NCBI GenBank assembly: GCA_036557185.1
Contig: DATBHZ010000117.1
Span: 572 to 64,571 of the forward strand
DNA: 64,000 nucleotides
Origin: Acidimicrobiia bacterium
Lineage (GTDB): Bacteria; Actinomycetota; Acidimicrobiia; IMCC26256; JAENVU01
Direction of reading: 5' to 3'
Shown here: in pieces, positions 10,221 to 60,039 of the stretch
How the letters are laid out: each line of letters begins with the position of its first letter
How positions within the stretch are numbered: position 1 is the first letter of the stretch
Notes under the pieces: generated by a model
The model's database searches: none
The model's input: the letters and a program-made list of their open reading frames with translations, nothing else
What the model was told of the DNA's origin: nothing
Position numbers and translations under genes: made by a program

Positions 10221-10764
10221 ACGCCTCGGCACCGGCCTTCCAGGTGCGGTCGAGCTTCGAGTCCGGCGGGAACCGGTCGTCGATCTCGAGGATCACCATG
10301 CCGTGGGCGAACGCCCAGAGAGCCTGCGCGGTGTCCTCGTCTGTCGTGACGAGGAAGAACGGCTCGCCGGCCCACTCCTCGAGCTCTGGGGTCATCGCAT
10401 CGCGCCGGAGCGGGCCCGCGGTAGCGAGCCGATAGAGCTCCGGGTGCGCGACGCAGTACACGCGATATGCCTGCAGGACGCGCGCGATCGCGCCACGCGT
10501 GCCGCCGCCTGCGGCCTCGTGGAGCACGACGCCGAGCTCGGCCATCGCGGCCTCGACGAGACCGAGCTCGAGCTCGGCCTTGTTCGGGAAGTGCTTGTAG
10601 ATCGACGGTGCCTGTATCCCGAGCTTCGTCCCGAGCCGCCGCATGGTGAGCGATTCGCTGCCCTCGGTCTCAAGGATCTCCCGCGCGGCGGCGAGCACCT
10701 CCGCCGCGCGAGCCGACCGCTGGCGCATCGGCTCCGGTGCCGGCGCCGGCGCCCGCGAGCTCAT
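10198..10764 (-). CDS. TetR/AcrR-family transcriptional regulator
   Basis: N-terminal HTH LTMRRLGTKLGIQAPSIYKHFPNK. ATG 10764 overlaps the stop of the upstream gene (ATGA). Confidence 0.85.
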   Translation of the reverse strand: MSSRAPAPAPEPMRQRSARAAEVLAAAREILETEGSESLTMRRLGTKLGIQAPSIYKHFPNKAELELGLVEAAMAELGVVLHEAAGGGTRGAIARVLQAYRVYCVAHPELYRLATAGPLRRDAMTPELEEWAGEPFFLVTTDEDTAQALWAFAHGMVILEIDDRFPPDSKLDRTWKAGAEAFRPQARG

Positions 10765-11228
10765 CGCACCTCGGGCTCGAGCCGGAAGACCGGGTGTCGG
10801 GGAGCGATGCGCGCGATCTCGTCGTCGCTCGAATCTGCGGTCGCACCGTCGAAGAACACGCCGCTCTCGGCCCTCCACCGGCGGACGTAGGCACGAAGGA
10901 TCCGAGGCTTCTCCTCGTCGGCCAGCTCGTGCGCGACGTAGTGGTCGCGGCGGCGGCCGAGCAGCAGCACCACTTCGCCTGCTCCACGAGCGTTCCGCAC
11001 CCATTCCGTGTCGCCGCGCGGCGCCACGAGATAGGAGCGCCCCTCGACGGCCAGGAGGTTCACCGGGTTCCGCCGCGGGAGACCGCTGCGGCGCCCGCGC
11101 ACCTCGAGGATCCGGCTCCCCCACACGCTGACACCGAGACGCGTGAGTCCCATCACGCATCGGTTCATGACGTTGCGGGTGAACCAGTCCGGCTCCCGGT
11201 AATGCGTCGGGGTGGGGATTGTGCTCAT
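10761..11228 (-). CDS. Second deazaflavin-dependent nitroreductase-family protein (DDN-like)
   Basis: Only the C-terminal 155 codons of track ORF 10761..12101 look coding (GRRSGLPRRNPVNLL..EGRSYLVAP.G.TEWVRNAR). The start is ATG 11228. Confidence 0.78.
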   Translation of the reverse strand: MSTIPTPTHYREPDWFTRNVMNRCVMGLTRLGVSVWGSRILEVRGRRSGLPRRNPVNLLAVEGRSYLVAPRGDTEWVRNARGAGEVVLLLGRRRDHYVAHELADEEKPRILRAYVRRWRAESGVFFDGATADSSDDEIARIAPRHPVFRLEPEVR

Positions 11229-11262
11229 CGGAGTGCTCGCTCTCTGCTCATCGTGCTCTCGT

Positions 11263-11309
11263 CCATACTGAGCTAACGCTGTTAGCCATACTGGGCTAAC
11301 AGCGTTCAC
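11263..11309. promoter_or_regulatory. Putative TetR operator pair upstream of the DDN-TetR operon
   Basis: 15-bp direct repeat CCATACTG(A/G)GCTAAC at 11263-11277 and 11286-11300. Each copy runs into an inverted repeat: GCTAAC-GCT-GTTAGC at 11272-11286 and GCTAAC-AGC-GTTCAC at 11295-11309. Confidence 0.55.
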
Positions 11310-11465
11310 GCTGTCAAGAGGGGCTCGCCGGTGCTCGGCGAAGGGGGCGCAGCGGGACGGATCTGTTACCGTCACCGGCCGCGTCTGCGCGGGACGGGGA
11401 GCGATGGACGACGAAGGCACTCGGACCAGGCGGTGGGCAGGGAAGCCGCGAAGGGCCTGCCTCCG

Positions 11466-12305
11466 ATGATGCACGTCGTCACCGTCCACTTCATGGACGA
11501 CCGCTGGATCGGCCCGCAGCTGCGCTTCATGAAGCGCCACCTGCCTGCGGAGCACCGTGTCTACGGCTGCCTGAACGGGATCGATCCCGCCTGGCGTGAC
11601 GTCTTCCACGCGACGTTCGATCTCGAAGGGAAGCACGCCGACAAGCTCAACGAGCTCGCAGGCATCGTGACGCGGTCGGGCGCGGCTCCGGAGGATCTCC
11701 TGCTGTTCATCGACGGCGACGCCTTCCCGATCGCGCCGGTCGACCGGGAGCTGCTCGGCGGCACACCGCTCGCGGCCGTTCGTCAGGACGAGTGCAACGG
11801 CGACAAGCAGCCGCACCCTTCCTTCTGCCTCACCACCGTCGGGTTCTGGAACGAGATCGGCGGGGACTGGCGCCAGGGATACCAGTGGGAGGTCGAGATG
11901 GGCGGCACCATGACCGACGTCGGCGGCAACCTGCTCGGCCTCCTGGAGCGCAACAACATCACGTGGCGGCCGCTCTTGAGGAGCAACCCGCTCCCGCCCG
12001 AGGATCCGATGCTGTTCGGAATCTACGCGGACGTCGTGTACCACCACGGAGCCGGGTTCAGGGTCCCCAAGTCGCGGCAGATGATCATGCAGAGCCGTCA
12101 AGGGGTGCTGCGCGCCTCATCCGATGCTCGCACACCCGCGTGGGTGCCGGTGGTGGGGCGCCTCGAGCGCTCGGCGCGCTACCGGCTCGCCGACTACCGG
12201 CACCGCAAGCAGCTCTCGGAACTCGCCGGCAAGGCGACCACGTCGAGCGACGAGGTGTTCCGCAAGATCCTCACCGACGACGAGTTCTACAAGGAGCTTC
12301 GCTGA
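11466..12305 (+). CDS. Hypothetical protein with DxD motif (possible GT-A-like nucleotide-sugar transferase)
   Basis: 280 aa from ATG 11466 (MMHVVTVHF). Has an LLLFIDGDAFPI DxD-like motif. I do not recognise a family. Confidence 0.6.
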   Translation: MMHVVTVHFMDDRWIGPQLRFMKRHLPAEHRVYGCLNGIDPAWRDVFHATFDLEGKHADKLNELAGIVTRSGAAPEDLLLFIDGDAFPIAPVDRELLGGTPLAAVRQDECNGDKQPHPSFCLTTVGFWNEIGGDWRQGYQWEVEMGGTMTDVGGNLLGLLERNNITWRPLLRSNPLPPEDPMLFGIYADVVYHHGAGFRVPKSRQMIMQSRQGVLRASSDARTPAWVPVVGRLERSARYRLADYRHRKQLSELAGKATTSSDEVFRKILTDDEFYKELR

Positions 12306-12317
12306 GAAGACCGTTGC

Positions 12318-13676
12318 TCAGGCAACGGCGAGCAAGCCGCTGCGCGCTGCGTCGGTGAGCTCCGCGTGATCGCGCTCCGTCTGGTCGGCATACGCCTCGG
12401 CGAAGCGGTGGAAGCCGCGGGCCAGCCGGGCGCCGCCGCCGCAGTAGCCGGCGAGCAATGAAGGGTTCACGGATCGAGCGTGCGCTCGGGCGAGCGCGGC
12501 GGCACACAGCTCCGAGTACACGACGAGCGACCTCGGGGTCGTCCGCTCGACGCGTATCGAGCCCTTCATGTCCCAGAGCTGGCGCACGTAGTAGTCGCGG
12601 CCTCCCGGACCGGCGCTCCAACCCAGCAGCGGGTCACCGGCCGCCTGCATAATCGTCTGGCCCTCGACGACGCGGCGCCCGTGATGCGTGTAGATACTCC
12701 GGCCGACGTGGGGCTCGAGCACCGACGCTTCGGCCTCTTTCACCTGGAGCACCAGCGGGTCATCGTCGGTGGTCCCGACTCCGATCGCGATCGCGCACCG
12801 CGTCCCCACGCTCCCGACGCCCACGACCTTGCGCGCGGCGTCGACAGGCGTGAACTGGTCGAGCAGGTGCGCACGGTCCGCCGAGAGCGTGGACCGATAG
12901 CCCTCGAGGAACGCGAGCACATGCTCGATGTCGAAGTCGTCCGTGTGCTCGGTCCATGGCGGATCGTCGATGATCGTGCGCCTGCCGTCACGGACAATCG
13001 TGAGCTTCTCGAACGCGCGTCGCGCGTCCTTCGTCCGTGCCTTCGCCACGAGCCGGCGCGCCGCCTTCCGATCCGCCCGTGATTCGAGGCCTTCGAGCAC
13101 TTCGTCGGCCGTGACATCGGCGTACCAGACGCCGAGCGTCGTGAGCTTCGCCAGCTGCGCGAGCGTGCGCGCGTACGTCACGACACACGCTTCGGTTGCA
13201 GCTTGCGCGTCGGTGGTCGTGAATCCCCGCGACCTCGCTGCCAGCACGACGCTCGCGGCGAGCCGTGCGAGGTCCCACTCCCACGGGCCGGGATGCGTCT
13301 CGTCGAAGTCGTTCACGTCGAAGACGATCCGGCGCTCGGCCGTCGCGAACACCCCGAAGTTCAAGAGGTGCGCGTCGCCACATGCCTGCACCCGGATGCC
13401 GGTCGCCGGGTGTCCCGCCAGGTCGCAGGCCATCACAGCCGCCGCACCGCGGAAGAACGCGAACGGCGACTCCAGCATACGACCGTACCGGAGTGGAACG
13501 AGCTCGGGTATGCGCGTCGCGGCTTGGCGCTCGAGGATCGCCAGAGGATCGCGGTGCTCCGAAGGCCGCCAGTCACCGAACGAGTCGCGCTCGAAGGACT
13601 CGCGCACGGCACGCCCGGCCGCGCGCAGCTCGTCGCGCCCTCGCTCCACCGGTTCCGTGATCTTCGAGGCTCGCAC
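12318..13676 (-). CDS. DUF2252-family protein
   Basis: RIPELVPLRYGRMLESPFAFFRGAAAVMACDL and the overall length match the DUF2252 family as I remember it. Confidence 0.75.
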   Translation of the reverse strand: MRASKITEPVERGRDELRAAGRAVRESFERDSFGDWRPSEHRDPLAILERQAATRIPELVPLRYGRMLESPFAFFRGAAAVMACDLAGHPATGIRVQACGDAHLLNFGVFATAERRIVFDVNDFDETHPGPWEWDLARLAASVVLAARSRGFTTTDAQAATEACVVTYARTLAQLAKLTTLGVWYADVTADEVLEGLESRADRKAARRLVAKARTKDARRAFEKLTIVRDGRRTIIDDPPWTEHTDDFDIEHVLAFLEGYRSTLSADRAHLLDQFTPVDAARKVVGVGSVGTRCAIAIGVGTTDDDPLVLQVKEAEASVLEPHVGRSIYTHHGRRVVEGQTIMQAAGDPLLGWSAGPGGRDYYVRQLWDMKGSIRVERTTPRSLVVYSELCAAALARAHARSVNPSLLAGYCGGGARLARGFHRFAEAYADQTERDHAELTDAARSGLLAVA

Positions 13677-13797
13677 GAAGCTCCGTCTCCCGCCGCCCGG
13701 TGCCCGCCGGGAACGCTAACGCCTGCCGACGGCTCGGCGGTCTCGAGCAGACAAGACGTGGCGCGTCGCACGCGCGCCGACCTCGTAGCGTGACGGC

Positions 13798-15222
13798 GTG
13801 GCGCGGGAGTACGACGCCGTTGTCGTCGGATCTGGTCCGAACGGCCTGGTGGCGGCGGTCACGCTCGCGCGCGCTGGATGGAAGGTCCTCGTCCTCGAAG
13901 CCGCAGACCGGCCTGGGGGCGGCACCCGCTCCGAGGAGCTGACCCTGCCCGGGCTGACACACGACGTCTGCTCTGCGATACATCCGCTCGCCGTCGGCTC
14001 GCCGGCGTTCCGTGCTCTGCCGCTGCACGAGCACGGCCTCACCTGGGTGCATCCCGACGTGCCGCTCGTGCACCCTCTCGACGGTGGCGACGCGGTCGTC
14101 CTCGATCGTTCCGTGGATGTCACCGCGCAAGGGCTCGGCGCGGACGGCGACGCGTACCGTCGCCTCTTCGAGCCGTTGGTGAGCGCCGGTATGGGCCTCG
14201 TCGACGACTTGCTCTCGCCGTTGCGCATCCCACCGCGGCATCCGCTGGCAGTCGCTCGATACGGCCTCGACGGAATCCGCTCCACCGTCGCCGTCGCCCG
14301 CTCACGTTTCGAGACCGAGGAGGCGCGCGCGCTGTTCGCGGGGCTCTCCGGTCACTCCATGCTCTCGCTGCGCGCACCCATGACGGCCGGGTTCGGAATG
14401 GTCCTCGCGGCCCTCGGGCATCTGGTGGGCTGGCCGATGCCACGCGGCGGGTCGCAAAGCATCGCCTCGGCACTCGTCTCGCTCCTCGAGGCGCACGACG
14501 GCGAGGTCGTAACCGGCCGGCGCGTCACGAGCTTGCACGACCTCCCCGACGCCCGCGCAACGATGCTCGACGTCACGCCGCGCCAAGTACTGCACCTGTT
14601 CGGTTACCAGCTGCCGCCACGCTACGCGCGCCGGTTGGCGCGATACCGCCACGGTGTGGGCGTGTGGAAGGTCGATTGGGCGCTCGACGCGCCGATCCCC
14701 TGGTCGGCGCCCGAGTGCCGGCGCGCGGCCACCGTCCACCTCGGTGCGACACTTCCCGAGATCGCCGCGGCAGAGGACGAGGTCCAGGCGGGCCGGCATC
14801 CCCGTCGTCCACTCGTCCTGCTCGTGCAACCGACCTTGTTCGACGACACTCGGGCGCCGGCGGGCATGCACACAGCCTGGGCGTACTGCCACGTCCCGAA
14901 CGGATCAACCGTCGACATGACGGCACACATCGAGGACCAGGTCGAGCGGTTCGCGCCCGGCTTCCGCACGACCATCCTTGCGCGGCACGTGATGAGCCCG
15001 TCAGGGCTCGAAGCGCACGACGCGAACTACGTCGGCGGCGACATCAACGGTGGCGTGGCCGACATCCGCCAATTCGCGGCGAGGCCCGTCGCGTCACTGC
15101 ACCCGTGGCGGCTCCCGGTCAAAGGCATGTACCTGTGCTCCGCATCGACACCGCCGGGCGGTGGCGTGCACGGGATGTGCGGGTGGCAGGCAGCGCGCGA
15201 AGCGCTCCGGCGCGAACGCTGA
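13798..15222 (+). CDS. FAD-dependent oxidoreductase, phytoene-desaturase (CrtI)-like family
   Basis: N-terminal dinucleotide fold YDAVVVGSGPNGLVAAVTLARAGWKVLVLEA. About 470 aa. C-terminal GGGVHGMCG. Confidence 0.8.
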   Translation: MAREYDAVVVGSGPNGLVAAVTLARAGWKVLVLEAADRPGGGTRSEELTLPGLTHDVCSAIHPLAVGSPAFRALPLHEHGLTWVHPDVPLVHPLDGGDAVVLDRSVDVTAQGLGADGDAYRRLFEPLVSAGMGLVDDLLSPLRIPPRHPLAVARYGLDGIRSTVAVARSRFETEEARALFAGLSGHSMLSLRAPMTAGFGMVLAALGHLVGWPMPRGGSQSIASALVSLLEAHDGEVVTGRRVTSLHDLPDARATMLDVTPRQVLHLFGYQLPPRYARRLARYRHGVGVWKVDWALDAPIPWSAPECRRAATVHLGATLPEIAAAEDEVQAGRHPRRPLVLLVQPTLFDDTRAPAGMHTAWAYCHVPNGSTVDMTAHIEDQVERFAPGFRTTILARHVMSPSGLEAHDANYVGGDINGGVADIRQFAARPVASLHPWRLPVKGMYLCSASTPPGGGVHGMCGWQAAREALRRER

Positions 15223-15227
15223 CCCAC

Positions 15228-16709
15228 CTAGTGCGCCGCGAGCACCTTCTGGAGGAACGGCAGGAGGCCCGCGAAGAACGCGTTGGTCGGGTACGCGCCG
15301 GACGGGTCGTTGTGCGCGTACGTGCTCTGCCGGTTCACGCCCGTGACGTTGCTCGACGGGATCCCTGACTGCGCGGCGAGCGCCTGCGCGCCCTGGACGA
15401 CGCGGGCGCCACCGAGCGCCGCGCCGAACGCGTAGATGAGCAGCGTCTTCGGGAGCTCGCGGCCCATCGTGGAGTGGACGTCGGACACCGACTGCGCAGG
15501 CGTCGCGTTGCCGTTGTTCACCACGGCCGTGTCGTCGGTGAGCCGCTGCGGGAAGTACCACTCGGTGCCGTCGACGTTGTTGATGCCCGCACCGGAGAAC
15601 ATGGTGGCGAAGCGGTCGATCGGCGTGAGCGCGCCGGCACCGTTCCAGCCGTGCACCGGACCGGAGACCGTGAGTCCGGCGCCCAGGTGCGCCTGGGCCG
15701 CGGCGAGATTCTTGGGCGACGTCTTCGTATTGAGCGCGTAGCCGTACTGACCGACGTTGCTGACTCGAACGGGCGGGACGATGCTCGCCGGCAGGAGGCC
15801 CGACGACTGCCCAAGCGACGGAGTGTTGGGATCGAGCAGCGCGGCCAACGAACCTGTCGAGCTGAAGATGCCGGCGAACGGTGCCGTGATTCCCCCGAAC
15901 GCGAGCCATGGAGAGGCGCTGGGAGCGTTGAGCATCTGCAGACGCTGGTTGACTTCCGCTGTTGTCATCGTGGTCGGGCCGCTCCCACCGTCGATGTAGA
16001 CGAGGCCCGCGAGATCAGCAGCGCCGGGATGGCCGCCGAAGTCCCACGTCGCATACGCGGTCACGACCGACCCTCCGAGCGAGTGGCCGCCCAGCACGAC
16101 CTTGCCGCCCTCTCCCTTCGCCGCCTCGATCACCTGATGCAGGTCTTGCACGGCGACGTTCATGCCCCACTGCTTCGCGAACGCGACCGTCGCGCTCGGG
16201 ATCATCTGGAAGTGCGGCGTGATACTCGGGTTCTTCAGGTATCCGAGGTAGTAGTTGTAGACCTGCGTCGAGGTCGTCTTGCCGCTCTTGAACGAGTTCA
16301 GTTGCGACTGGTCCTCGAACAGGTTCTCACGACGCTCGATGGACCAGACCTGCCAGCCGCTCGCCGACGACACGATCCACTTGGCGAGCGGCACGAAGTA
16401 CGCGCTTCCGGCTGAGGTTCCGGGCTCCAGCACGAGGACGTTCTTGGCATCGGTCGGCCCCACCTTGATGACGCCGACCTTGTTGTACTGCGCGGGCGTC
16501 CCGGGAGCGGAGAAGCCCTGCATCCAGGTCACCTCCAGCGGCTGGCTGGTACCGGTCCGACCCGATGCGTTCGTCGGAGAGCTCGACGGGCGCGTCGTCG
16601 ACGTCGACTTCTTGGAGCTCCCGGAGGAGCAGGCACCGAGCAAGGCGATGCACGCAACGACGCCGACGACAACTCGTGCGCGAGAGACTCGAAACGCGGG
16701 CATCCGCAC
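15228..16709 (-). CDS. Secreted alpha/beta-hydrolase (lipase/esterase-like) lipoprotein
   Basis: Signal peptide with lipobox (VVACIALLGAC) and nucleophile elbow GGHSLGG. Confidence 0.75.
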   Translation of the reverse strand: MRMPAFRVSRARVVVGVVACIALLGACSSGSSKKSTSTTRPSSSPTNASGRTGTSQPLEVTWMQGFSAPGTPAQYNKVGVIKVGPTDAKNVLVLEPGTSAGSAYFVPLAKWIVSSASGWQVWSIERRENLFEDQSQLNSFKSGKTTSTQVYNYYLGYLKNPSITPHFQMIPSATVAFAKQWGMNVAVQDLHQVIEAAKGEGGKVVLGGHSLGGSVVTAYATWDFGGHPGAADLAGLVYIDGGSGPTTMTTAEVNQRLQMLNAPSASPWLAFGGITAPFAGIFSSTGSLAALLDPNTPSLGQSSGLLPASIVPPVRVSNVGQYGYALNTKTSPKNLAAAQAHLGAGLTVSGPVHGWNGAGALTPIDRFATMFSGAGINNVDGTEWYFPQRLTDDTAVVNNGNATPAQSVSDVHSTMGRELPKTLLIYAFGAALGGARVVQGAQALAAQSGIPSSNVTGVNRQSTYAHNDPSGAYPTNAFFAGLLPFLQKVLAAH

Positions 16710-16830
16710 CCCTTCAGGTCGTACCGACTCGAGCGAAAGTCAGCGTAATGCGGCCGCAGAGGTGACGGTCTTGCACGCGACGACGCCGGAGCAAATCACG
16801 CGCGTGGTGCGGTCGCTGGTTGGAACTGCG

Positions 16831-17793
16831 TCACCCTGCGTGTCCGCGAGCGGAAGCAGAGTTGCCCTTCGCGTTCCCGTTACCACCGCCCTTGCCATTG
16901 CCCTTGCCATTGCCCTTGCCGTTCCCGCCGCCGTTCCCGTTCCCGCCGCCGTTCCCGTTCCCGTGCCCGTTCCCGTTCCCACCGCCCGTCGCGCCGCCTG
17001 TGCTTCCTGGCGGCACAGCCGGAGTGGAGACCGCCGGCGGTGCGGTGTCCTGTGAGCCGCCGCCAACCTGAACACCGCCGGGCGCGGGCGGTGCGGACAC
17101 TTGCGGCGTTCCGCCGCTCGCGAAGGGCGCGCTGCCGGGCGGTGCAGCGTGCAGCAGCGCGCAATACTGCGCGGCGCTCACGCCTGCGCTCGTCGCCGCA
17201 CGCGTGATCAGCTTCGTTGCTTGCGTGCTCGGTGCTCGCCCACTCGCGAGCCATGCGCTGCAGGCGTTGACCACACCCGTTGCGGGTGAGCCAGATCCGT
17301 GTGCTCCGACGGCGTTCTTCCCGTTCGTCGAGGAGCTACCCGGGCCTGTTTCGTGTGACCGTCCACCGCTGCCCGACGGACCGGGGACGCCGAGACTCGA
17401 GAACGCGGTGTGCGCCACCTCCTGGAGCGGACCCGGGAGAGCGCCGGTGGCAGCGGCAGCCGCGGTCGCGAGGAGTAGCGGGACGGCCGCGACGCCCACG
17501 GCGGTCCGGAGTGACGCTCGGCGCAAGAGACTGACCCGGGACGCGATCGCGGGCTCGGAGGCTGTGGCTCGGATCGTCTCGGTGATCTGGGCGATGCGCT
17601 CGGCATCGCGTTCCGACTCGGGCGTTCCCGATCGCATCGACGACACGAGGCGATCGACGCGGTCCCCGCCTGCGGCAAGGTCGTCCGGCGCCGGCTCGCC
17701 GGAGAGGACCCGATCGGCGCGATCCGTGGGCTCGGAGTCAGACGGCCACCCGGAACCGGGCAGCAGGTCGTCGTCGTAGCCCGAGCCGCTCAT
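16831..17793 (-). CDS. Single-pass membrane protein with C-terminal Gly/Asn repeat tail (possible anti-sigma-like partner of the divergent ECF sigma)
   Basis: Acidic cytoplasmic N-terminus, one TM (VGVAAVPLLLATAAAAATGAL), an extracytoplasmic Pro/Gly/Ser-rich region, then GGGNGNGHGNGNGGGNGNGGGNGKGNGKGNGKGGGNGNAKGN. The functional call is inference from topology and position only. Confidence 0.6.
   Translation of the reverse strand: MSGSGYDDDLLPGSGWPSDSEPTDRADRVLSGEPAPDDLAAGGDRVDRLVSSMRSGTPESERDAERIAQITETIRATASEPAIASRVSLLRRASLRTAVGVAAVPLLLATAAAAATGALPGPLQEVAHTAFSSLGVPGPSGSGGRSHETGPGSSSTNGKNAVGAHGSGSPATGVVNACSAWLASGRAPSTQATKLITRAATSAGVSAAQYCALLHAAPPGSAPFASGGTPQVSAPPAPGGVQVGGGSQDTAPPAVSTPAVPPGSTGGATGGGNGNGHGNGNGGGNGNGGGNGKGNGKGNGKGGGNGNAKGNSASARGHAG
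16860..16990. repeat. In-frame short tandem repeats encoding the Gly/Asn tail
   Basis: CCCTTGCCATTG is reiterated about 3 times. The TTCCCGCCGCCGTTCCCG unit is reiterated on the plus strand. Confidence 0.85.
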
Positions 17794-17992
17794 CGCGCCG
17801 GGACTCCTGGCGCCCCGATGGCGCCGCAGTACATGGTGCCCACCGAGTTGCTCCTGCCGCTTCTGCCGCCGTGGCGGCTCTGGTAGTCAAACTTCGCGTA
17901 TCGGAGCGTGACCCTATCGAGCCGGATCCCCGCAACCGTGGATGTCACCATCCTCCGCTCCGCCCGCCTTGTAAAGCGATGCGACGGAGAAA

Positions 17993-18019
17993 ACCCGGAT
18001 GGGCGCAGTCCATCCGGGT
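17993..18019. other. Perfect 10-bp stem / 7-nt loop hairpin in the sigma-factor upstream region
   Basis: ACCCGGATGG-gcgcagt-CCATCCGGGT. Confidence 0.5.
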
Positions 18020-18111
18020 CCTCCTACCTACGACAACCGAAATGATGCGCACCGGCACTTTGCCGGTCCTTTGCCAGGGGAGCGCAGGTTCAGTTTCGGA
18101 CCCCGATTTAG

Positions 18112-18789
18112 GTGTCGTGGCCCATGTCGTCGGCCTTCTCGGTGGGGAGATCGTCCCACCAAGAGCGCGCGTTACGGGTCGGAGCGATCGAGGGCTCAGG
18201 TTCACGGGGAATCTGCCGAAAACCCCTCGTGATCCTGGGGGAGTGGGACTTCGCGGAGCTGCTGTCCGCGGCCCAGAACGGGGCCGAATGGGCGGTGTCG
18301 CTGTTGTACCGCGACCTTCATCCGCGCCTCGCGAAGTACCTCGGCGCGAGGGAGCCCGGCGCCGCAGAGGACATCGAATCCGAGGTCTGGCTCGCGATTG
18401 CACAACGCGTCGGCGACTTCGTCGGCGACGAGCAGGCCTTCCGTGCGTGGGCGTTCTCGATCGCACGCCGGCGACTCATGGACTTCCGCCGCACGGCCGT
18501 GCGACGTGCAACCACTCCTACGCCGGTCGAGTACCTCGACGGTCCCGACCGCGTCGACGTCGAAGACACTGTGCTCGACGCGCTCTCCGCAGAAGAGGCG
18601 GCTTCGTTCGTCGTTTCCACGCTCACGGACGATCAAGCCGAGGTCGTGCTCCTCAGGGTCCTGGGCGATCTCGACGTCACCCAGGTCTCCGAGCTTCTCC
18701 ACAAGAGCCCGGGTGCGATTCGGGTGCTCCAGCACCGCGCCCTGCGCCACCTCGAGCGCGCGCTCACCGAGGAACGAGTAACGCAATAG
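18112..18789 (+). CDS. ECF-type RNA polymerase sigma-70 family factor
   Basis: Region 2 (LLYRDLHPRLAKYL..EDIESEVWLAIA....F) and region 4 HTH (LTDDQAEVVLLRVLGDLDVTQVSELLHKSPGAIRVLQHRALRHL). The start is uncertain; an alternative GTG lies at 18229. Confidence 0.85.
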   Translation: MSWPMSSAFSVGRSSHQERALRVGAIEGSGSRGICRKPLVILGEWDFAELLSAAQNGAEWAVSLLYRDLHPRLAKYLGAREPGAAEDIESEVWLAIAQRVGDFVGDEQAFRAWAFSIARRRLMDFRRTAVRRATTPTPVEYLDGPDRVDVEDTVLDALSAEEAASFVVSTLTDDQAEVVLLRVLGDLDVTQVSELLHKSPGAIRVLQHRALRHLERALTEERVTQ

Positions 18790-18813
18790 CGGCCTCGAGC
18801 GATACAAGCGGCG

Positions 18814-19206
18814 ATGTCGCTCTCGCTCGCCCACACAGAAGCCGCGCTTCGGACACCAAGAGCTTCCGCTGAGGAGCTCGGCCCGGTCGGCAGGCTCATC
18901 GACGCACTCCGCGCGCCCGCATCTCGGAGCACCGGGGTCGAGCGCTCGGAGGTCTTGGCGCAGGTAATACGCGAGCGCAAGGACGAGGGGATCGCGCCCG
19001 GGGCGAGCGGCCATCGCGAGACGGTCGAGTGCAGAGAACATGCACGAGCTCGACGGGTACGCACGGACGGGCGAGCGGTGCGCGTGTTCTCGGCGCCACC
19101 GTTGTCGCGAGAGTGGGGCACCGCTCGACCCGTCCGGCGCGAGCGCCGCTGCCGAGAGCAATGGACTCCGCCTCGGCTCGAGGGTTCGCAAGGCAGCCTC
19201 TCGTGA
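18814..19206 (+). CDS. Hypothetical ORF between the sigma factor and the first pilin gene (coding status uncertain)
   Basis: The first ~70 codons have ordinary amino-acid composition, and by hand count about three quarters end in G/C. The stop overlaps the GTG of the next gene (GTGA at 19203-19206). The C-terminal half is Arg-rich and looks less convincing. There is no TM and no recognisable motif. Confidence 0.35.
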   Translation: MSLSLAHTEAALRTPRASAEELGPVGRLIDALRAPASRSTGVERSEVLAQVIRERKDEGIAPGASGHRETVECREHARARRVRTDGRAVRVFSAPPLSREWGTARPVRRERRCREQWTPPRLEGSQGSLS

Positions 19207-20462
19207 GGAGCTTCGTGCGCTCCGTTCGCCGGCGTCTCGACGCTCGGGGGAGTCGGTCGTCCCAGGCCGGGATGACGCTCATCGAGCTCATCGTCGCGAT
19301 CACGTTGATGTCGGTCGTGATCGTGGGCCTCGCCACCACCATCGGCGCGTCGGACAAGGTGATCCAGCTCACGCGTGCACGCCAGGTGGCCGAGGCTGCG
19401 GCGAACAAGCGAATCGAAGAGCTCCGCGACATCGACTACGACAACCTCGCGCTCGACTCCCAACCGACCCACAGCACCGATCCGAACAACCCCGACTTCT
19501 ACGTCTCGGCCGACGGGACTCAGTACAACTACACGGGCGCGACACCGGCGAACAACGAGGACCTGATCGTCGACACGACGCCACCCCTGGGCCAGGTCAA
19601 GCACATCGAGACGCCCGTCACGGTCGGGACCACCGTGGTCGACGTCTATCAGTACGTGACGTGGGTGGACGACCCGACCATCGCGGGGACCCAGAACCTC
19701 AAGCGAATCACCGTGGTCGTGCACTACCACACGGTCGCGGTTCCGGGCACCGACGCGACGCTGCGCGAGTCGGTGCTCTTCACCCCGGGCACGGTCACGA
19801 TCAACCCCGACGATTCCGAATCCGACCCGACGACCACCACTACGTCGACATCGACATCGACCACGACGCTCCCATCGGCGTGTGGCTCCTTCTCGATGGC
19901 AGGCAGCGGCGGGGCGCAGGTCGGCTACACGGCGACGACCACGATCACGATCACGCTCAACCTGGACGCGTGCGGCGTCGACTACGTCGACGTCTCGAAC
20001 GACGGCTCGACCTGGACGAGCAACCTTCCCTACGACAGCACGGACCCAACGCTCGCGTGGACGCTCACCGGGGGCGATGGCGAGAAGACGGTCTCGGTGC
20101 AGGCGCACAACGGCATCGCGGGGGTGCCGTTCAGCGTGGGGGCACAGAACATCATCCTCGACACGATCAAGCCGACGACGCCCACCAACCTGACCGGGAG
20201 CGCGTCGTGCCAGGGCTCGAACCGCACCGTCGTCATGTCGTGGGACACGTCCACCGACGACAACTTCGTCGGTTACCACGTGTACCGCAGCACCGACGGT
20301 GTGACCTGGCAGCTGGTGACCTCGGTGGTGGGAACCAGCGCGTCCGACACGAGCTCCAAGGGCCTCTCTTCGACTCGTTACTACGTGGCCGCATACGACA
20401 AGGCCGGAAACGAATCCAATGCGAGCAACACGATTCTTTACTCGAAGAACCAGTGCAGCTGA
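19203..20462 (+). CDS. Prepilin-type protein, PilV-like minor pilin with Ser/Thr linker, Ig-like module and C-terminal fibronectin type III domain
   Basis: Basic leader then QAG|MTLIELIVAITLMSVVIVGL (Gly -1, Glu +5). PilV-like AEAAANKRIEELR. TTTTTSTSTSTTT linker. FN3 signature SWDTSTDDNFVGYHVYRS...YYVAAYDKAGNES. The start could also be ATG 19161 or GTG 19215. Confidence 0.85.
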   Translation: MRSFVRSVRRRLDARGSRSSQAGMTLIELIVAITLMSVVIVGLATTIGASDKVIQLTRARQVAEAAANKRIEELRDIDYDNLALDSQPTHSTDPNNPDFYVSADGTQYNYTGATPANNEDLIVDTTPPLGQVKHIETPVTVGTTVVDVYQYVTWVDDPTIAGTQNLKRITVVVHYHTVAVPGTDATLRESVLFTPGTVTINPDDSESDPTTTTTSTSTSTTTLPSACGSFSMAGSGGAQVGYTATTTITITLNLDACGVDYVDVSNDGSTWTSNLPYDSTDPTLAWTLTGGDGEKTVSVQAHNGIAGVPFSVGAQNIILDTIKPTTPTNLTGSASCQGSNRTVVMSWDTSTDDNFVGYHVYRSTDGVTWQLVTSVVGTSASDTSSKGLSSTRYYVAAYDKAGNESNASNTILYSKNQCS

Positions 20463-20982
20463 GCGCGGCGTAGGGCAGGCGGGCTTCACGCTCGTCGAGC
20501 TCATGATCACCGTCGCGCTCCTCGCGGTGGTGCTCGGCGTCGTGTTCGACTCGTTGATCCAGATGCAGTCGTCCGAGTCGTTCCAGCAGGACCGGTCGAC
20601 CTCGCTCGACACGATGCGTCTCACGCTCAACCAGATGACGCGCAACCTGCGGCAAGCAGCGACGATCAACGAGGCAACCGCGACCTCGAGCCACCTCGAA
20701 TTCACGACGTACAAGCTGAACGAGGCGACTCCGACGACCGAGGACGTCACGTATGACGCGACGGGTACGACGCTCACGCGCAAGGTCGACAGCGGCTCGG
20801 CTGTGCCGGTCGTGACCAACCTGCAGAGCACGAACCTGTTCACCTACACGCCGGCGCCCAACACCACCGGCGTCCAGTGGGTCGCGATCAACCTCGCCAT
20901 CGTGCCCAAGAACGCTCCGAGCACCGTGCTCGTCCTCGACGGACAGGTCAACCTCCGGAACAGAACGGCGGCACAGCTATGA
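20419..20982 (+). CDS. Prepilin-type protein, PilW/GspJ-like minor pilin
   Basis: Leader then QAG|FTLVELMITVALLAVVLGVVF (Gly -1, Phe +1, Glu +5). ATG 20419 is the only in-frame canonical start and overlaps the previous gene by 44 nt. Confidence 0.8.
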   Translation: MRATRFFTRRTSAAERGVGQAGFTLVELMITVALLAVVLGVVFDSLIQMQSSESFQQDRSTSLDTMRLTLNQMTRNLRQAATINEATATSSHLEFTTYKLNEATPTTEDVTYDATGTTLTRKVDSGSAVPVVTNLQSTNLFTYTPAPNTTGVQWVAINLAIVPKNAPSTVLVLDGQVNLRNRTAAQL

Positions 20983-22472
20983 CCAGGCTCCTGACGCACC
21001 GCGACTCCCGGGAAGACGGATTCGCGCTGATCGCCACCATGCTGGCGATCTTCATCGCGACGCTGATCGCGACGAGCATGATGTACCTGAGCTTCCACGA
21101 CTCGACAGCCGGCGCGCGCAACCGCTCGTGGGGGCAGGCGATTCACGTGGCCGAGTCCGGCATGCACGAGGCGATCGCCTACCTCCAGGCGAACAACGGC
21201 GCGGTCCCGCCCAGCACCATCACGGGGACGACGGCCGACGGCACCTACCAGTACAAGGTCACCGCGCTGCCCAGGAACCGCTACCAGATCGACAGCATCG
21301 GCAGCGTCGGCAACGTCGTGTCGCTCAGCGCGGCGCGGCGCATCCGTGTGACGCTCGCTCCGCCGCACTCGTTCAAGTACGCGCTCTTCTCGCTGAGCGA
21401 CGTCACGACGAAGAACAACAACCTCGTATGCGGTGACATCTGGGCGAACACCGACGTCACGGTCTTCCAGAACGACCAGGTGGTGGCGGGAACCGACCCG
21501 CAGTGCCCCTCCGGCTCGATCGGGAGCGGATCGGCAACAGCCGCGGGTGGGACGATCACGCTCCAGCACAACTCGGTCGTCGAGGGCGACGCTTGGTCAG
21601 GGAACTTCGATTCGTCCGGCGACGGGATCTCGCTCGCCGGCGGCGCGCGCATCGGTGGCTTCGCCAAGGCATCGTCGGCTACCCCCGCTTGCGCCGACGA
21701 TCCCGGCCACGACGGCTACGCGATCGACAACGGAGGGACAATCGCCGGGCCCGCGACTGCCTGGGGGACGATCGGCGGCGGCGGGTCGTTCAGCACGCAG
21801 TCGCCGATGACGTGCACACCTGCAGCCGCGACCAAGACGATCCCGACGTTCAACTACAGCGCGGCGAACTACCCGGGCCCGAGCTTGCACGAGTACACCT
21901 TCCCCGCGGACTACGCGGCGTTCAACGCGTACATCGCGGCAAACCAGAACAACCTCGAGGGTACGTTCCACATCATCGGCGGCGACGCGAGCACACCGGT
22001 GAACTTGACAGGAGTCCAGATCGCGGGTGACACCACGATCATCGCGGACTCGGCACCGATCGACGCTTCGGGGGGGATCGGAGCGGCGAACAACGACGAC
22101 AAGCTGCTCGTGCTCGCATCGTTCTATGCGCCGTCCGGAGGACCCACGGACTCTGGCTGCACGACGAACGGCGGCAACCCCGGCGACTGCGCCATCGGGT
22201 TCAAGAACAATTTCCAGCCGGCCTCCGGAGACTTGACCGGCGGCAACAACACCGCCGTTCTTCTCTACGCGCCGAACGGGCCTGTAGCGTTCAAGAACAA
22301 CGCGCAGTTCCAGGGTGCGGTCTACGCGAGCAACATCCAACTGAAGAACAACATGAACGTGGTCTACGACACCCGCGTCGACCAGATCGTGGGCTTCGGG
22401 CCCGAGACGCTCGTCGTCGATCAGTGGCTGGAGTGCAGCAGCTCCGGGAGCCTCACCACCACCGACTGCTGA
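20979..22472 (+). CDS. PilX/GspK-like large pilus-tip protein with PilX-type N-terminus and beta-helix-like Gly/Asn/Asp-rich body
   Basis: ATG 20979 overlaps the upstream stop (ATGA). The N-terminus is REDG|FALIATMLAIFIATLIATSMMYL with no Glu at +5. The remainder is about 480 aa with repeated short G/N/D-rich segments and paired Cys. Confidence 0.75.
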   Translation: MTRLLTHRDSREDGFALIATMLAIFIATLIATSMMYLSFHDSTAGARNRSWGQAIHVAESGMHEAIAYLQANNGAVPPSTITGTTADGTYQYKVTALPRNRYQIDSIGSVGNVVSLSAARRIRVTLAPPHSFKYALFSLSDVTTKNNNLVCGDIWANTDVTVFQNDQVVAGTDPQCPSGSIGSGSATAAGGTITLQHNSVVEGDAWSGNFDSSGDGISLAGGARIGGFAKASSATPACADDPGHDGYAIDNGGTIAGPATAWGTIGGGGSFSTQSPMTCTPAAATKTIPTFNYSAANYPGPSLHEYTFPADYAAFNAYIAANQNNLEGTFHIIGGDASTPVNLTGVQIAGDTTIIADSAPIDASGGIGAANNDDKLLVLASFYAPSGGPTDSGCTTNGGNPGDCAIGFKNNFQPASGDLTGGNNTAVLLYAPNGPVAFKNNAQFQGAVYASNIQLKNNMNVVYDTRVDQIVGFGPETLVVDQWLECSSSGSLTTTDC

Positions 22473-22591
22473 TCAGCGTGCGGCGGTGACGAGCGCGACT
22501 CAGTCCGTCAGCGACCCGTCGTCGGGGAGATACGCGAACAGCTCCCGGTCGCCCTCCAACCCCTTGAGCTTTCGAAGCAGCACGGAACGGG

Positions 22592-22665
22592 TGGAGACGA
22601 TGGGACTCGAACCCACGACCCCCTGCTTGCAAAGCAGGTGCTCTAGCCAGCTGAGCTACGTCCCC
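22592..22665 (-). tRNA. tRNA-Ala (anticodon UGC)
   Basis: Reverse complement GGGGACGTAGCTCAGCTGGCTAGAGCACCTGCTTTGCAAGCAGGGGGTCGTGGGTTCGAGTCCCATCGTCTCCA. Has the G3:U70 identity pair and anticodon loop cTTTGCAAg. CCA is not encoded. Confidence 0.93.
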
Positions 22666-58786: not shown

Positions 58787-58917
58787 TCGCCGGGTGAGAT
58801 CAGCCCTTCAGGGCACCTCGGGACCCGTCGATAACTCCCTCTGGTTGCCTCGCTGCCGCGTGAGGTGCGGCACGGCCGCGAGGAGGCAGGGAAGCCACCG
58901 GGGTGGAGGGGATAGCC

Positions 58918-60039
58918 GTGCTCGATCTGGACCAGCTCCTGCGTGACGCAGTGCAGCGTGCTGCGTCGGACGTCCACATCAAGGTGGGCTCGCCCCCGTT
59001 CGTCCGCGTCGACGGTGAGCTCATCCCCGCGCAGACGGAGCCCGTGACACAAGCGGACACCGAGCGCATCGCGTTCACGATCATGCCGAAGGTGCGCGCC
59101 GAGGAGTTCATCGAGCACCACGAGGCCGACTTCGCGTACTCGCTCGCGGGGGTCGGCCGCTTCCGCGTCAACGTGATGAGCCAGCGCGGGTCCGTGGGAA
59201 TCGTGCTCCGGCGCGTCCTCGCGGGGATCCCGTCGATCGAGGAGCTCGGTCTTCCTCCGGTTGTGCGCCGCCTGGCCGAGGAGCCGCGCGGCCTCGTGCT
59301 CGTGACCGGCCCGACCGGCTCGGGAAAGACGACGAGCCTCGCGGCGATGATCGACCACATCAACGAGATCGAGTCGCGCCACATCGTGACGATCGAGGAC
59401 CCGATCGAGATCCTGCACACCGACAAGAAGTCGCTCGTGAACCAGCGCGAGATCGGCACCGACACCGACGACTTCCACGTCGCGCTCAAGCGCGTGCTGC
59501 GGCAGGACCCGGACGTGATCCTGATCGGGGAGATGCGCGACCCCGAGACGGTCTGGGCGGCGCTGGCCGCCGCTGAGACCGGCCACCTCGTGTTCTCGAC
59601 GCTGCACACGATGGGTGCGACCGAGACGATCAACAGGGTGATCGACTTCTTCCCGCCGTTCCAGCAACAGCAGGTGCGGATGTCGCTGGCCGGCGCGCTC
59701 AAGGGCATCATCTCGCAGCGCCTGGTGCAGTGCTCCGACGGCCGCGGTCGCGTGCCGGCCATGGAGGTGCTCGTCGCCACCGGTCGTGTGTTCGACAAGA
59801 TCGTCGACTCGGCGCAGACGCACGAGCTCGAGGAGCTGATCGCCGACGGCGAGTACTACGGCATGCAGACCTTCGACCAGAGCCTGCTCGGGCTGTACGC
59901 GACCGGTGTGATCACACGCCGCGACGCGCTCACCGCGTCGACCAAGACCCACGACCTGCGGCTCAAGCTCGACCAGTACGACCTGTCGCGCGCGCAGGAG
60001 GACTTCGAGGCCCAGCCCGCGGCGGCGACCCCCGCATAG
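58918..60039 (+). CDS. pilT: Type IV pilus retraction ATPase PilT (twitching motility protein)
   Basis: ASDVHIKVGSPPFVRVDG, Walker A GPTGSGKTT, Walker B ILIGEMRD and His box GHLVFSTLHT. The start is placed at GTG 58918 (GGAGGGG 7 nt upstream). Confidence 0.9.
   Translation: MLDLDQLLRDAVQRAASDVHIKVGSPPFVRVDGELIPAQTEPVTQADTERIAFTIMPKVRAEEFIEHHEADFAYSLAGVGRFRVNVMSQRGSVGIVLRRVLAGIPSIEELGLPPVVRRLAEEPRGLVLVTGPTGSGKTTSLAAMIDHINEIESRHIVTIEDPIEILHTDKKSLVNQREIGTDTDDFHVALKRVLRQDPDVILIGEMRDPETVWAALAAAETGHLVFSTLHTMGATETINRVIDFFPPFQQQQVRMSLAGALKGIISQRLVQCSDGRGRVPAMEVLVATGRVFDKIVDSAQTHELEELIADGEYYGMQTFDQSLLGLYATGVITRRDALTASTKTHDLRLKLDQYDLSRAQEDFEAQPAAATPA

Follow-up and report, generated by a model that had tools for sequence, protein, structure and literature searches.

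A trio of pilin-like genes

The 64-kb window analyzed here, which comes from the genome of an Acidimicrobiia bacterium (contig DATBHZ010000117.1), contains three consecutive genes, g1, g2, and g3 in this order, whose products are type IV pilin-like proteins (Table 1; all coordinates are window positions). Their assignment is supported by class III signal models, by the conservation of Gly and Glu residues at positions −1 and +5 relative to the predicted cleavage site, and by structure models with a pilin-type helix and sheet. As a set, the three proteins most likely form a tip or priming complex, as had been proposed in a preliminary description of the locus made from the sequence alone.

The three reading frames and their junctions, as that description had given them, can all be read directly: GTGA at 19203–19206, where an upstream open reading frame (ORF; 18814–19206) meets the GTG of g1, an overlap of 44 nucleotides (nt) between g1 and g2 (ATG of g2 at 20419, TGA of g1 at 20460–20462), and ATGA at 20979–20982, between g2 and g3. 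The 44-nt and ATGA overlaps indicate that translation of the three genes is coupled. The frame of g1 is open from 18873, and a second GTG, at 19215, preceded by GAGGAG at 19205–19210, is an equally possible start.

Prepilin signals and family membership

The cleavage motifs of all three proteins are also as first described. In g1, a leader of about 19–23 residues precedes the context RSSQAG/MTLIELIVA, with Gly−1 encoded at 19269–19271 and a predicted mature N-terminus MTLIELIVA, and in g2 a leader of 22 residues precedes GVGQAG/FTLVELMITV, with Gly−1 encoded at 20482–20484 and a predicted mature N-terminus FTLVELMITV. Profile hidden Markov model searches, which had been suggested as a check, yielded pilin-family matches for both: they score 28.3 (g1) and 28.9 bits (g2) against Pfam N_methyl (PF07963), whose gathering cut-off is 21.2, and both pass the cut-off of TIGR02532. 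In a six-frame motif scan of the 64 kb, they were the only canonical class III signals.

The third protein has a charged leader, MTRLLTHRDSREDG, which ends in REDG/FALIATML with Gly−1 encoded at 21018–21020, and a hydrophobic stretch with Ala, not Glu, at +5. A missing Glu+5 has been described for K-type subunits and for PilA of Streptococcus sanguinis (PMC9934059). g3 is not recognized by pilin-signal models, and an NCBIfam search with it gave zero matches. Its score against DUF7305 (PF23981), 26.3 bits, falls 0.7 bits short of the gathering cut-off of 27, and there was no match to PilX_N (PF14341) at E up to 1.

The matches of g1 and g2 to NCBIfam equivalog models are confined mostly to the N-terminal helix and lie far below the respective cut-offs. 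For g1, the scores were 21.4 bits with GspI (cut-off 44.35) and 19.4 with PilV (52.2); for g2, they were 23.6 with GspJ (64.85) and 22.3 with PilV (52.2). g2 also resembles ComGF (NF041002, 25.7 bits vs. a cut-off of 80; PF15980, 21.6–22 bits vs. 27) and, weakly, ComGE. Judged by these profile scores, the trio is outside the PilV, GspI, GspJ, and ComGF families. The orthology with PilV, PilW/GspJ, and PilX/GspK that the preliminary description had put forward could thus not be upheld for g1 and g2, nor for g3, whose model does not have a GspK-like fold.

Predicted structures

AlphaFold2 models were made for g1 and g3 as single proteins, and a pilin-type N-terminal helix followed by a sheet, another feature that the earlier description had named as a check, was found in both. 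The model of g1 has a predicted local distance difference test score (pLDDT) of 86. Its pilin module comprises a helix (residues 26–75) and a sheet (strands 107–193, to about residue 195), and it is followed by a disordered Thr-rich linker (198–224), an immunoglobulin (Ig)-like domain (229–319), and an FN3 domain (about 328–418). The latter has a profile match to the FN3 domain of chitinase A1 (E 7.6e-9), and a Foldseek search with g1 returned matches to tandem Ig/FN3 proteins.

The model of g3 (pLDDT 87.5, predicted TM-score 0.82) consists of an N-terminal helix (12–71), a four-stranded sheet (81–127), and a β-solenoid of about 360 residues that extends from about residue 136 to the C-terminus and contains conserved cysteines. 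A Foldseek search of the PDB with g3 gave nothing at E ≤ 0.001 and no GspK entry, and its top fold matches were ice-binding β-solenoids with a non-significant E of 0.09. Weak, non-significant fold matches of the N-terminal domain were to EpsI and S. sanguinis PilA (7o5y; probability 0.33–0.38), and no PDB sequence matched in a profile search. A fold like that of Thermus ComZ or of GspK had been expected for g3, and neither turned up in the PDB fold search. In the case of g2, similarity to solved pilins is at the level of the helix only. As modeled, g1 and g3 are “modular pilins” in the sense in which the term is used for S. sanguinis PilB and PilC (PMC8179133, PMC9934059).

Conservation across Acidimicrobiia

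Homologues of g1 and g3 are numerous, and nearly all of the named ones come from metagenome-assembled genomes of Acidimicrobiia. Some carry public names such as [quoted passage not shown] “DUF7305 domain-containing protein,” or “Tfp pilus assembly protein PilX,” and a metagenome annotation calls one of them ComGC. When species-representative genomes were scanned, 40 Acidimicrobiia-type loci were identified, including one in the complete genome of the isolate IMCC26256 (CP011489.1, trio at about 353–355 kb); the 3.83-Mb contig CAWDDH010000003.1 also carries the trio (at about 1.38 Mb, with PilT at about 1.03 Mb). The order g1-g2-g3 is kept in 33 of the 40 loci, and in the other seven a contig ends just upstream of g3, so that the block, whose conservation had been singled out for checking, is indeed conserved among related genomes.

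The signals are conserved as well. Gly−1 (G23) is invariant and Glu+5 (E28) present in at least 90% of the g1 homologues (n = 49), both residues are invariant in the g2 homologues (n = 25), and Gly−1 (G14) is found in at least 90% of those of g3 (n = 47). In the g3 homologues, the charged leader with its final Gly and the hydrophobic stretch are kept, with Glu+5 in none of the N-termini read. Across sequences that are 33–60% identical, this pattern of Gly−1 and Glu+5 is what would be expected under selection for recognition by a prepilin peptidase and for packing in a filament.

The g3 family is large: at E up to 0.001, it comprises 4030 cluster representatives. Most g3 homologues that the first protein search listed have a precomputed match to DUF7305, and a homologue that is 57% identical to g3 of the window (P0077) has one to PF14341. 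Among 45 remote relatives that were sampled, 10 matched PilX_N (best E 8.5e-7), 13 DUF7305, and 10 Bactofilin. A literature search found nothing on DUF7305, nor on pilB and pilT in Acidimicrobiia, and we know of no tested function for either PilX_N or DUF7305.

In Acidimicrobiia, the conserved neighbors of the trio are genes with metabolic or housekeeping roles. The commonest flanks are luciferase-like (Bac_luciferase), FAD (FAD_binding_2), and amidohydrolase genes, and in a deeper clade the trio, often present twice, stands between secD-secF-apt-relA and hisS-aspS. A diverged second pilin module lies in tandem upstream of the first in five loci (L008, L012, L022, L039, L044) and downstream of it in three others (L031, L034, L045). 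The gene maps of the second copies show g1- and g3-like genes, and for L045 the full set of three was confirmed. These tandem modules suggest alternative tip complexes.

The C-terminal modules of g1 differ by lineage, with PKD domains in some of the homologues P0204, P0208, P0209, P0214, and P0218, and one distant homologue (L055, 1294–1815) consists of the pilin module alone, with 173 residues. Adhesive modules seem to be swapped onto a constant pilin base. In two loci (L004, 11798–13995; L006, 11667–13822), the trio is followed by three genes for secreted proteins of 166, 106–184, and about 343 residues, the last of which has an fn3 match. Their Ala-rich N-termini end in AWTVGGGGTG and are reminiscent of SipW/TasA-type signals.

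Pilus machinery in the window and in relatives

According to the preliminary description, the 64 kb contained no major pilin, PilY1, prepilin peptidase, assembly ATPase, or platform protein, and the trio was a stand-alone module. Strictly speaking, an assembly ATPase was indeed not found there, but the statement was wrong in substance: 36 kb from the trio lies a gene for a PilT/PilU-family ATPase, that is, a retraction ATPase (TIGR01420, 462.8 bits vs. a cut-off of 319.1, over model positions 2–343 of 343; T2SSE, E 3.8e-51). Its orthologues, 68–99% identical, are called PilT in Acidimicrobiia records. It is the sole pilus-machinery gene found in the window; PilB, PilC, PilD, PilM, and a major pilin were absent among the ORFs of coding-type composition, a few short ORFs remaining unscanned. 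On the 3.83-Mb contig of a relative, pilT and the trio are 354 kb apart. The site of the orphan pilT is kept in distant Acidimicrobiia (L053, L054), with GNAT and deacetylase genes on one side and the gene of the CCA-adding enzyme on the other; it is located inside a conserved origin-proximal housekeeping block and has no other pilus genes within 10 kb.

A tBLASTn search of the related loci with the PilT of the window detected no ATPase of the T2SSE type closer than 10 kb to the trio. Links with other machinery genes were found in more distant relatives. In L056, a homologous g1-g2-g3 set is directly followed by a Peptidase_A24 gene and then by PilM; in L058, an N_methyl pilin gene and a Wzy_C gene are upstream of a homologous trio; and the P0448 contig carries PilC (T2SSF) and an N_methyl pilin upstream of a g3 relative that is itself preceded by two small genes. 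The separate N_methyl pilins adjoining the trio in distant relatives have 181–216 residues. In BLASTP comparisons with the proteins of the window, the trios of L055 and L056 gave E-values of 6e-34 for g3, 1e-7 to 1e-11 for g2, and 3e-13 for g1.

The Wzy_C (O-antigen ligase-like) gene of the distant relatives stands between the pilin gene and the trio (L058, 809–2518, minus strand; P0448 contig), a possible sign of pilin glycosylation. In the window, the trio has no such gene nearby.

The genes of type IVa pili (T4aP) are usually spread over several loci (PMC6668835), and a separate minor-pilin operon is therefore normal. Within Acidimicrobiia, the order UBA5794 is reported to have T4aP genes (PMC12008989). 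Given these reports and the homologues already annotated in databases, the earlier view that the arrangement had not been described does not hold.

A probable tip complex of a type IVa pilus

The interpretation that we favor, and consider probable, is that the trio forms one translationally coupled operon and encodes minor type IV pilins, which constitute the tip or initiation complex of a T4aP whose other genes are scattered in the chromosome. Minor pilins encoded in operons, one of them devoid of Glu+5, are known to cap type IV filaments, and modular pilins bear adhesive modules (PMC9934059, PMC6916266). The large g3, which does not have Glu+5, fits a capping subunit, and the proposal of the preliminary description on this point is supported. 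Coupled translation suggests that g1, g2, and g3 are made in equal amounts, which would fit a complex better than a bulk subunit.

What we infer, from cleavage and complex formation to the tip position, the adhesive role, and control by a sigma factor (see below), amounts to the following scheme. Each of the three proteins would be inserted into the membrane by its hydrophobic N-terminal helix, and a prepilin peptidase encoded elsewhere would cleave it after the conserved Gly. g3 would take the very top, with its β-solenoid facing the outside: not having Glu+5, it could not neutralize the N-terminus of a subunit above it, which argues for the topmost position. The small, canonical g2 and g1, with its Ig and FN3 domains on a Thr-rich linker, would dock below g3 via their helices. 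The complex would then prime polymerization of the major pilin and remain at the tip as an adhesive head, and PilT, encoded at a distance, might retract the fiber.

Several points weigh against this interpretation. Neither the scans of the window nor those of the sequence within 10 kb of the trio in the 40 Acidimicrobiia loci revealed PilB, PilC, PilD, PilMNO, or a major pilin, and the interpretation presupposes that this genome has them. All three proteins fall short of the equivalog cut-off for every named minor pilin. Finally, the PDB offers no significant structural match for g3, so that its role as an adhesin is suggested by its fold class.

Alternative explanations

The trio might instead be a self-contained short pseudopilus for surface display or secretion, in which g2 would be the main polymerizing subunit and g1 and g3 would be terminal. 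g2 has the size of a major pilin (about 165 residues when mature) and a canonical signal, no separate major pilin is found near the trio in any Acidimicrobiia locus, and the trio changes genomic context, and duplicates in tandem, as a unit. However, the stop/start overlaps on both sides of g2 point to roughly equal synthesis, which would not suit a bulk subunit, and the top family matches of g2, all below threshold, are to minor pilins (ComGF, GspJ, PilV). Distant relatives also have a separate pilin beside the trio. We regard this explanation as unlikely.

Assignment of the trio to a Com-type DNA-uptake pilus, or to another type IV filament that is not a T4aP, appears quite unlikely. The weak similarities of g2 to ComGF and ComGE would be in line with it, as would the name ComGC given to one homologue, but the ComGF score is less than a third of the cut-off, the ATPase encoded in the window is the T4aP-specific PilT, and the genes linked with the trio in relatives include PilM and that of a T2SSF platform protein, a combination found in T4aP clusters. 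Furthermore, ComEA and ComEC were not found in the window.

It is more improbable still that the trio makes up a minimal type IV filament specific to Acidimicrobiia, without canonical PilB, PilC, and PilD or a separate major pilin. In such a filament, g2 would form the body and g3 the β-solenoid cap, the apparatus would be unrecognized or heavily reduced, an orphan PilT fixed in the origin-proximal housekeeping block would be its partner, and in this lineage expression would be switched on by the sigma factor of the extracytoplasmic function (ECF) type described below.

That the three form no filament, and that a helix which merely happens to look like a prepilin signal stays uncleaved and anchors them in the membrane as common surface proteins, is hardly credible: g3 is matched by no pilin-signal model and Ig, FN3, and β-solenoid modules are also known in non-pilin adhesins, but the invariance of Gly−1 in g1 and g2 and the invariance (g2) or near-invariance (at least 90%, g1) of Glu+5 would be difficult to account for if the proteins were neither recognized by a peptidase nor packed in a filament, and one homologous trio has a prepilin peptidase gene and PilM beside it. 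A Tad/Flp pilus was rejected, as the G/FTLxE signal is of the T4a/type II secretion system type and relatives link the trio with PilM and a T2SSF platform protein.

Upstream region and genomic setting

Upstream of the trio and co-directional with it lies a gene for an ECF-type sigma factor, whose ORF is open from 18112. The protein matches Pfam Sigma70_r2 and r4_2 and scores 69.1 bits with the NCBIfam sigma70-ECF model (cut-off 42.9). One relative, in which g1 is 87% identical, also has the order sigma gene-trio, and other lineages do not; the sigma factor and the tRNA-Ala as flanks are confined to the lineage of the window. Tentatively, the sigma factor is a possible lineage-specific regulator of the operon. 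A search for an ECF-type promoter or a bipartite motif common to the sequences upstream of the sigma gene and of g1 gave nothing convincing, and a scan for sigma-70 promoters and terminators remained at background level.

The 130-residue ORF at 18814–19206 (plus strand), between the sigma gene and g1, was considered as a gene and as an anti-sigma candidate, and it was rejected as probably non-coding: its G+C content at third codon positions is 0.73 vs. about 0.85 in real genes, it has no family match, and it was left uncalled in a metagenome annotation. The stop-start overlap that had been read from the GTGA stands as far as the tetranucleotide goes but probably not as regards an upstream gene, and a gap of 414 nt between the sigma gene and g1 is probably untranslated. 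Divergent from the sigma gene, the minus strand of 16831–17793 encodes a protein of 320 residues for which one membrane helix is predicted. It has a Gly/Asn repeat, GNGNGHGNGNGGGNGNGGGNGKGNGKGNGKGGGNGN, in its C-terminal part and no family match, and it might be an anti-sigma factor or else a surface protein.

The window represents the origin region of a chromosome of the actinomycete type with a high G+C content (about 0.69). As first described, a tRNA-Ala adjoins the trio, and dnaA (ORF start 39686) is about 17 kb away from it, followed by dnaN, recF, dciA, gyrB, and gyrA. An Rfam scan of the whole window detected two tRNAs and nothing else. A metagenome contig (L001) is 99.5–99.8% identical to positions 10502–22603 and departs from the window 14 nt into the 3′ end of the tRNA-Ala, after which it carries an rve/HTH integrase or transposase gene (L001 12186–13479). 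By this sequence comparison, the difference is a strain-variable mobile element at the tRNA-Ala, adjoining the pilin operon.

Table 1. Positions and strands of the trio, the sigma factor gene, the pilus ATPase gene, and the surrounding genes.
Feature	Position	Strand	Remarks
g1, modular type IV pilin-like protein	19203–20462	+	419 residues from GTG 19203
g2, small canonical type IV pilin-like protein	20419–20982	+	187 residues
g3, large pilin-like protein without Glu+5	20979–22472	+	497 residues; ATG 20979
ECF-type sigma-70 factor (BldN/ShbA-like)	18229–18789	+	upstream of the trio
PilT/PilU-family type IVa pilus retraction ATPase	58864–60039	+	TIGR01420, Pfam T2SSE
tRNA-Ala	22590–22665	−	118 nt downstream of g3
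pknB	left end of window
dnaA, dnaN, recF, dciA, gyrB, gyrA	32–42 kb	−
yidC, jag, gidB, parA, parB	42–47 kb
trxA/trxB, murJ, CCA-adding enzyme	right of the genes at 42–47 kb

Significance

Acidimicrobiia are an abundant class in soil, freshwater, and the sea. To our knowledge, the type IV pili of Actinomycetota other than Tad/Flp have hardly been studied, and we know of no experimental test of such pili in Acidimicrobiia. The trio is a well-conserved and easily recognized marker of the T4aP of this class, and it provides concrete targets for studies of the cultured carrier IMCC26256. It also represents a natural case of modular pilins, in which Ig/FN3 and β-solenoid modules are fused to pilins and not supplied by a PilY1-type protein, and it would extend the idea that a cap without Glu+5 and two partners form a minimal tip complex in monoderms. 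The trio is uncharacterized and lineage-wide, yet ordinary in kind: it is no new type of system, and it leaves the current picture of type IV filament assembly unchanged.

Comparison with known systems

The closest analogue of the trio is the PilA-PilB-PilC set of S. sanguinis, which belongs to a monoderm T4aP (PMC9934059, PMC8179133, PMC6916266). Both sets comprise three co-encoded pilins, one of which has no Glu+5 and two of which are modular, with bulky C-terminal modules, and the role proposed for both is to start assembly and to present adhesive modules at the tip. There is no detectable sequence homology between the two sets, however. The subunit without Glu+5 is the largest of the trio, g3, and carries a β-solenoid, whereas S. 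sanguinis PilA is small; the modules are Ig/FN3 and a β-solenoid in the trio but vWA and a lectin in S. sanguinis; and the S. sanguinis genes are inside a pil cluster, while the Acidimicrobiia trio is apart from the machinery.

The HIJK complexes, FimU-PilV-PilW-PilX of Pseudomonas aeruginosa and GspH-I-J-K of type II secretion, share with the trio their organization in an operon and a large, last-encoded cap without Glu+5, and in T4aP the minor-pilin genes are likewise away from those of the ATPases and the platform protein (PMC9934059). The gene order of the trio, small or medium first and then large, resembles I-J-K. Unlike these complexes, the trio has three genes and not four and is devoid of a PilY1 gene, g3 does not have a GspK-like fold, and the Ig and FN3 modules of g1 are missing from PilV and GspI.

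Paralogous clusters of minor pilins and PilY1 exist in Myxococcus xanthus (Treuner-Lange et al., as cited in PMC9934059). They are located apart from the main pil locus. The trio is similarly a minor-pilin set that stands apart, and several lineages have a second copy of it in tandem. M. xanthus combines four minor pilins with a non-pilin adhesin, PilY1, whereas in the trio the modules that resemble adhesins are part of the pilins.

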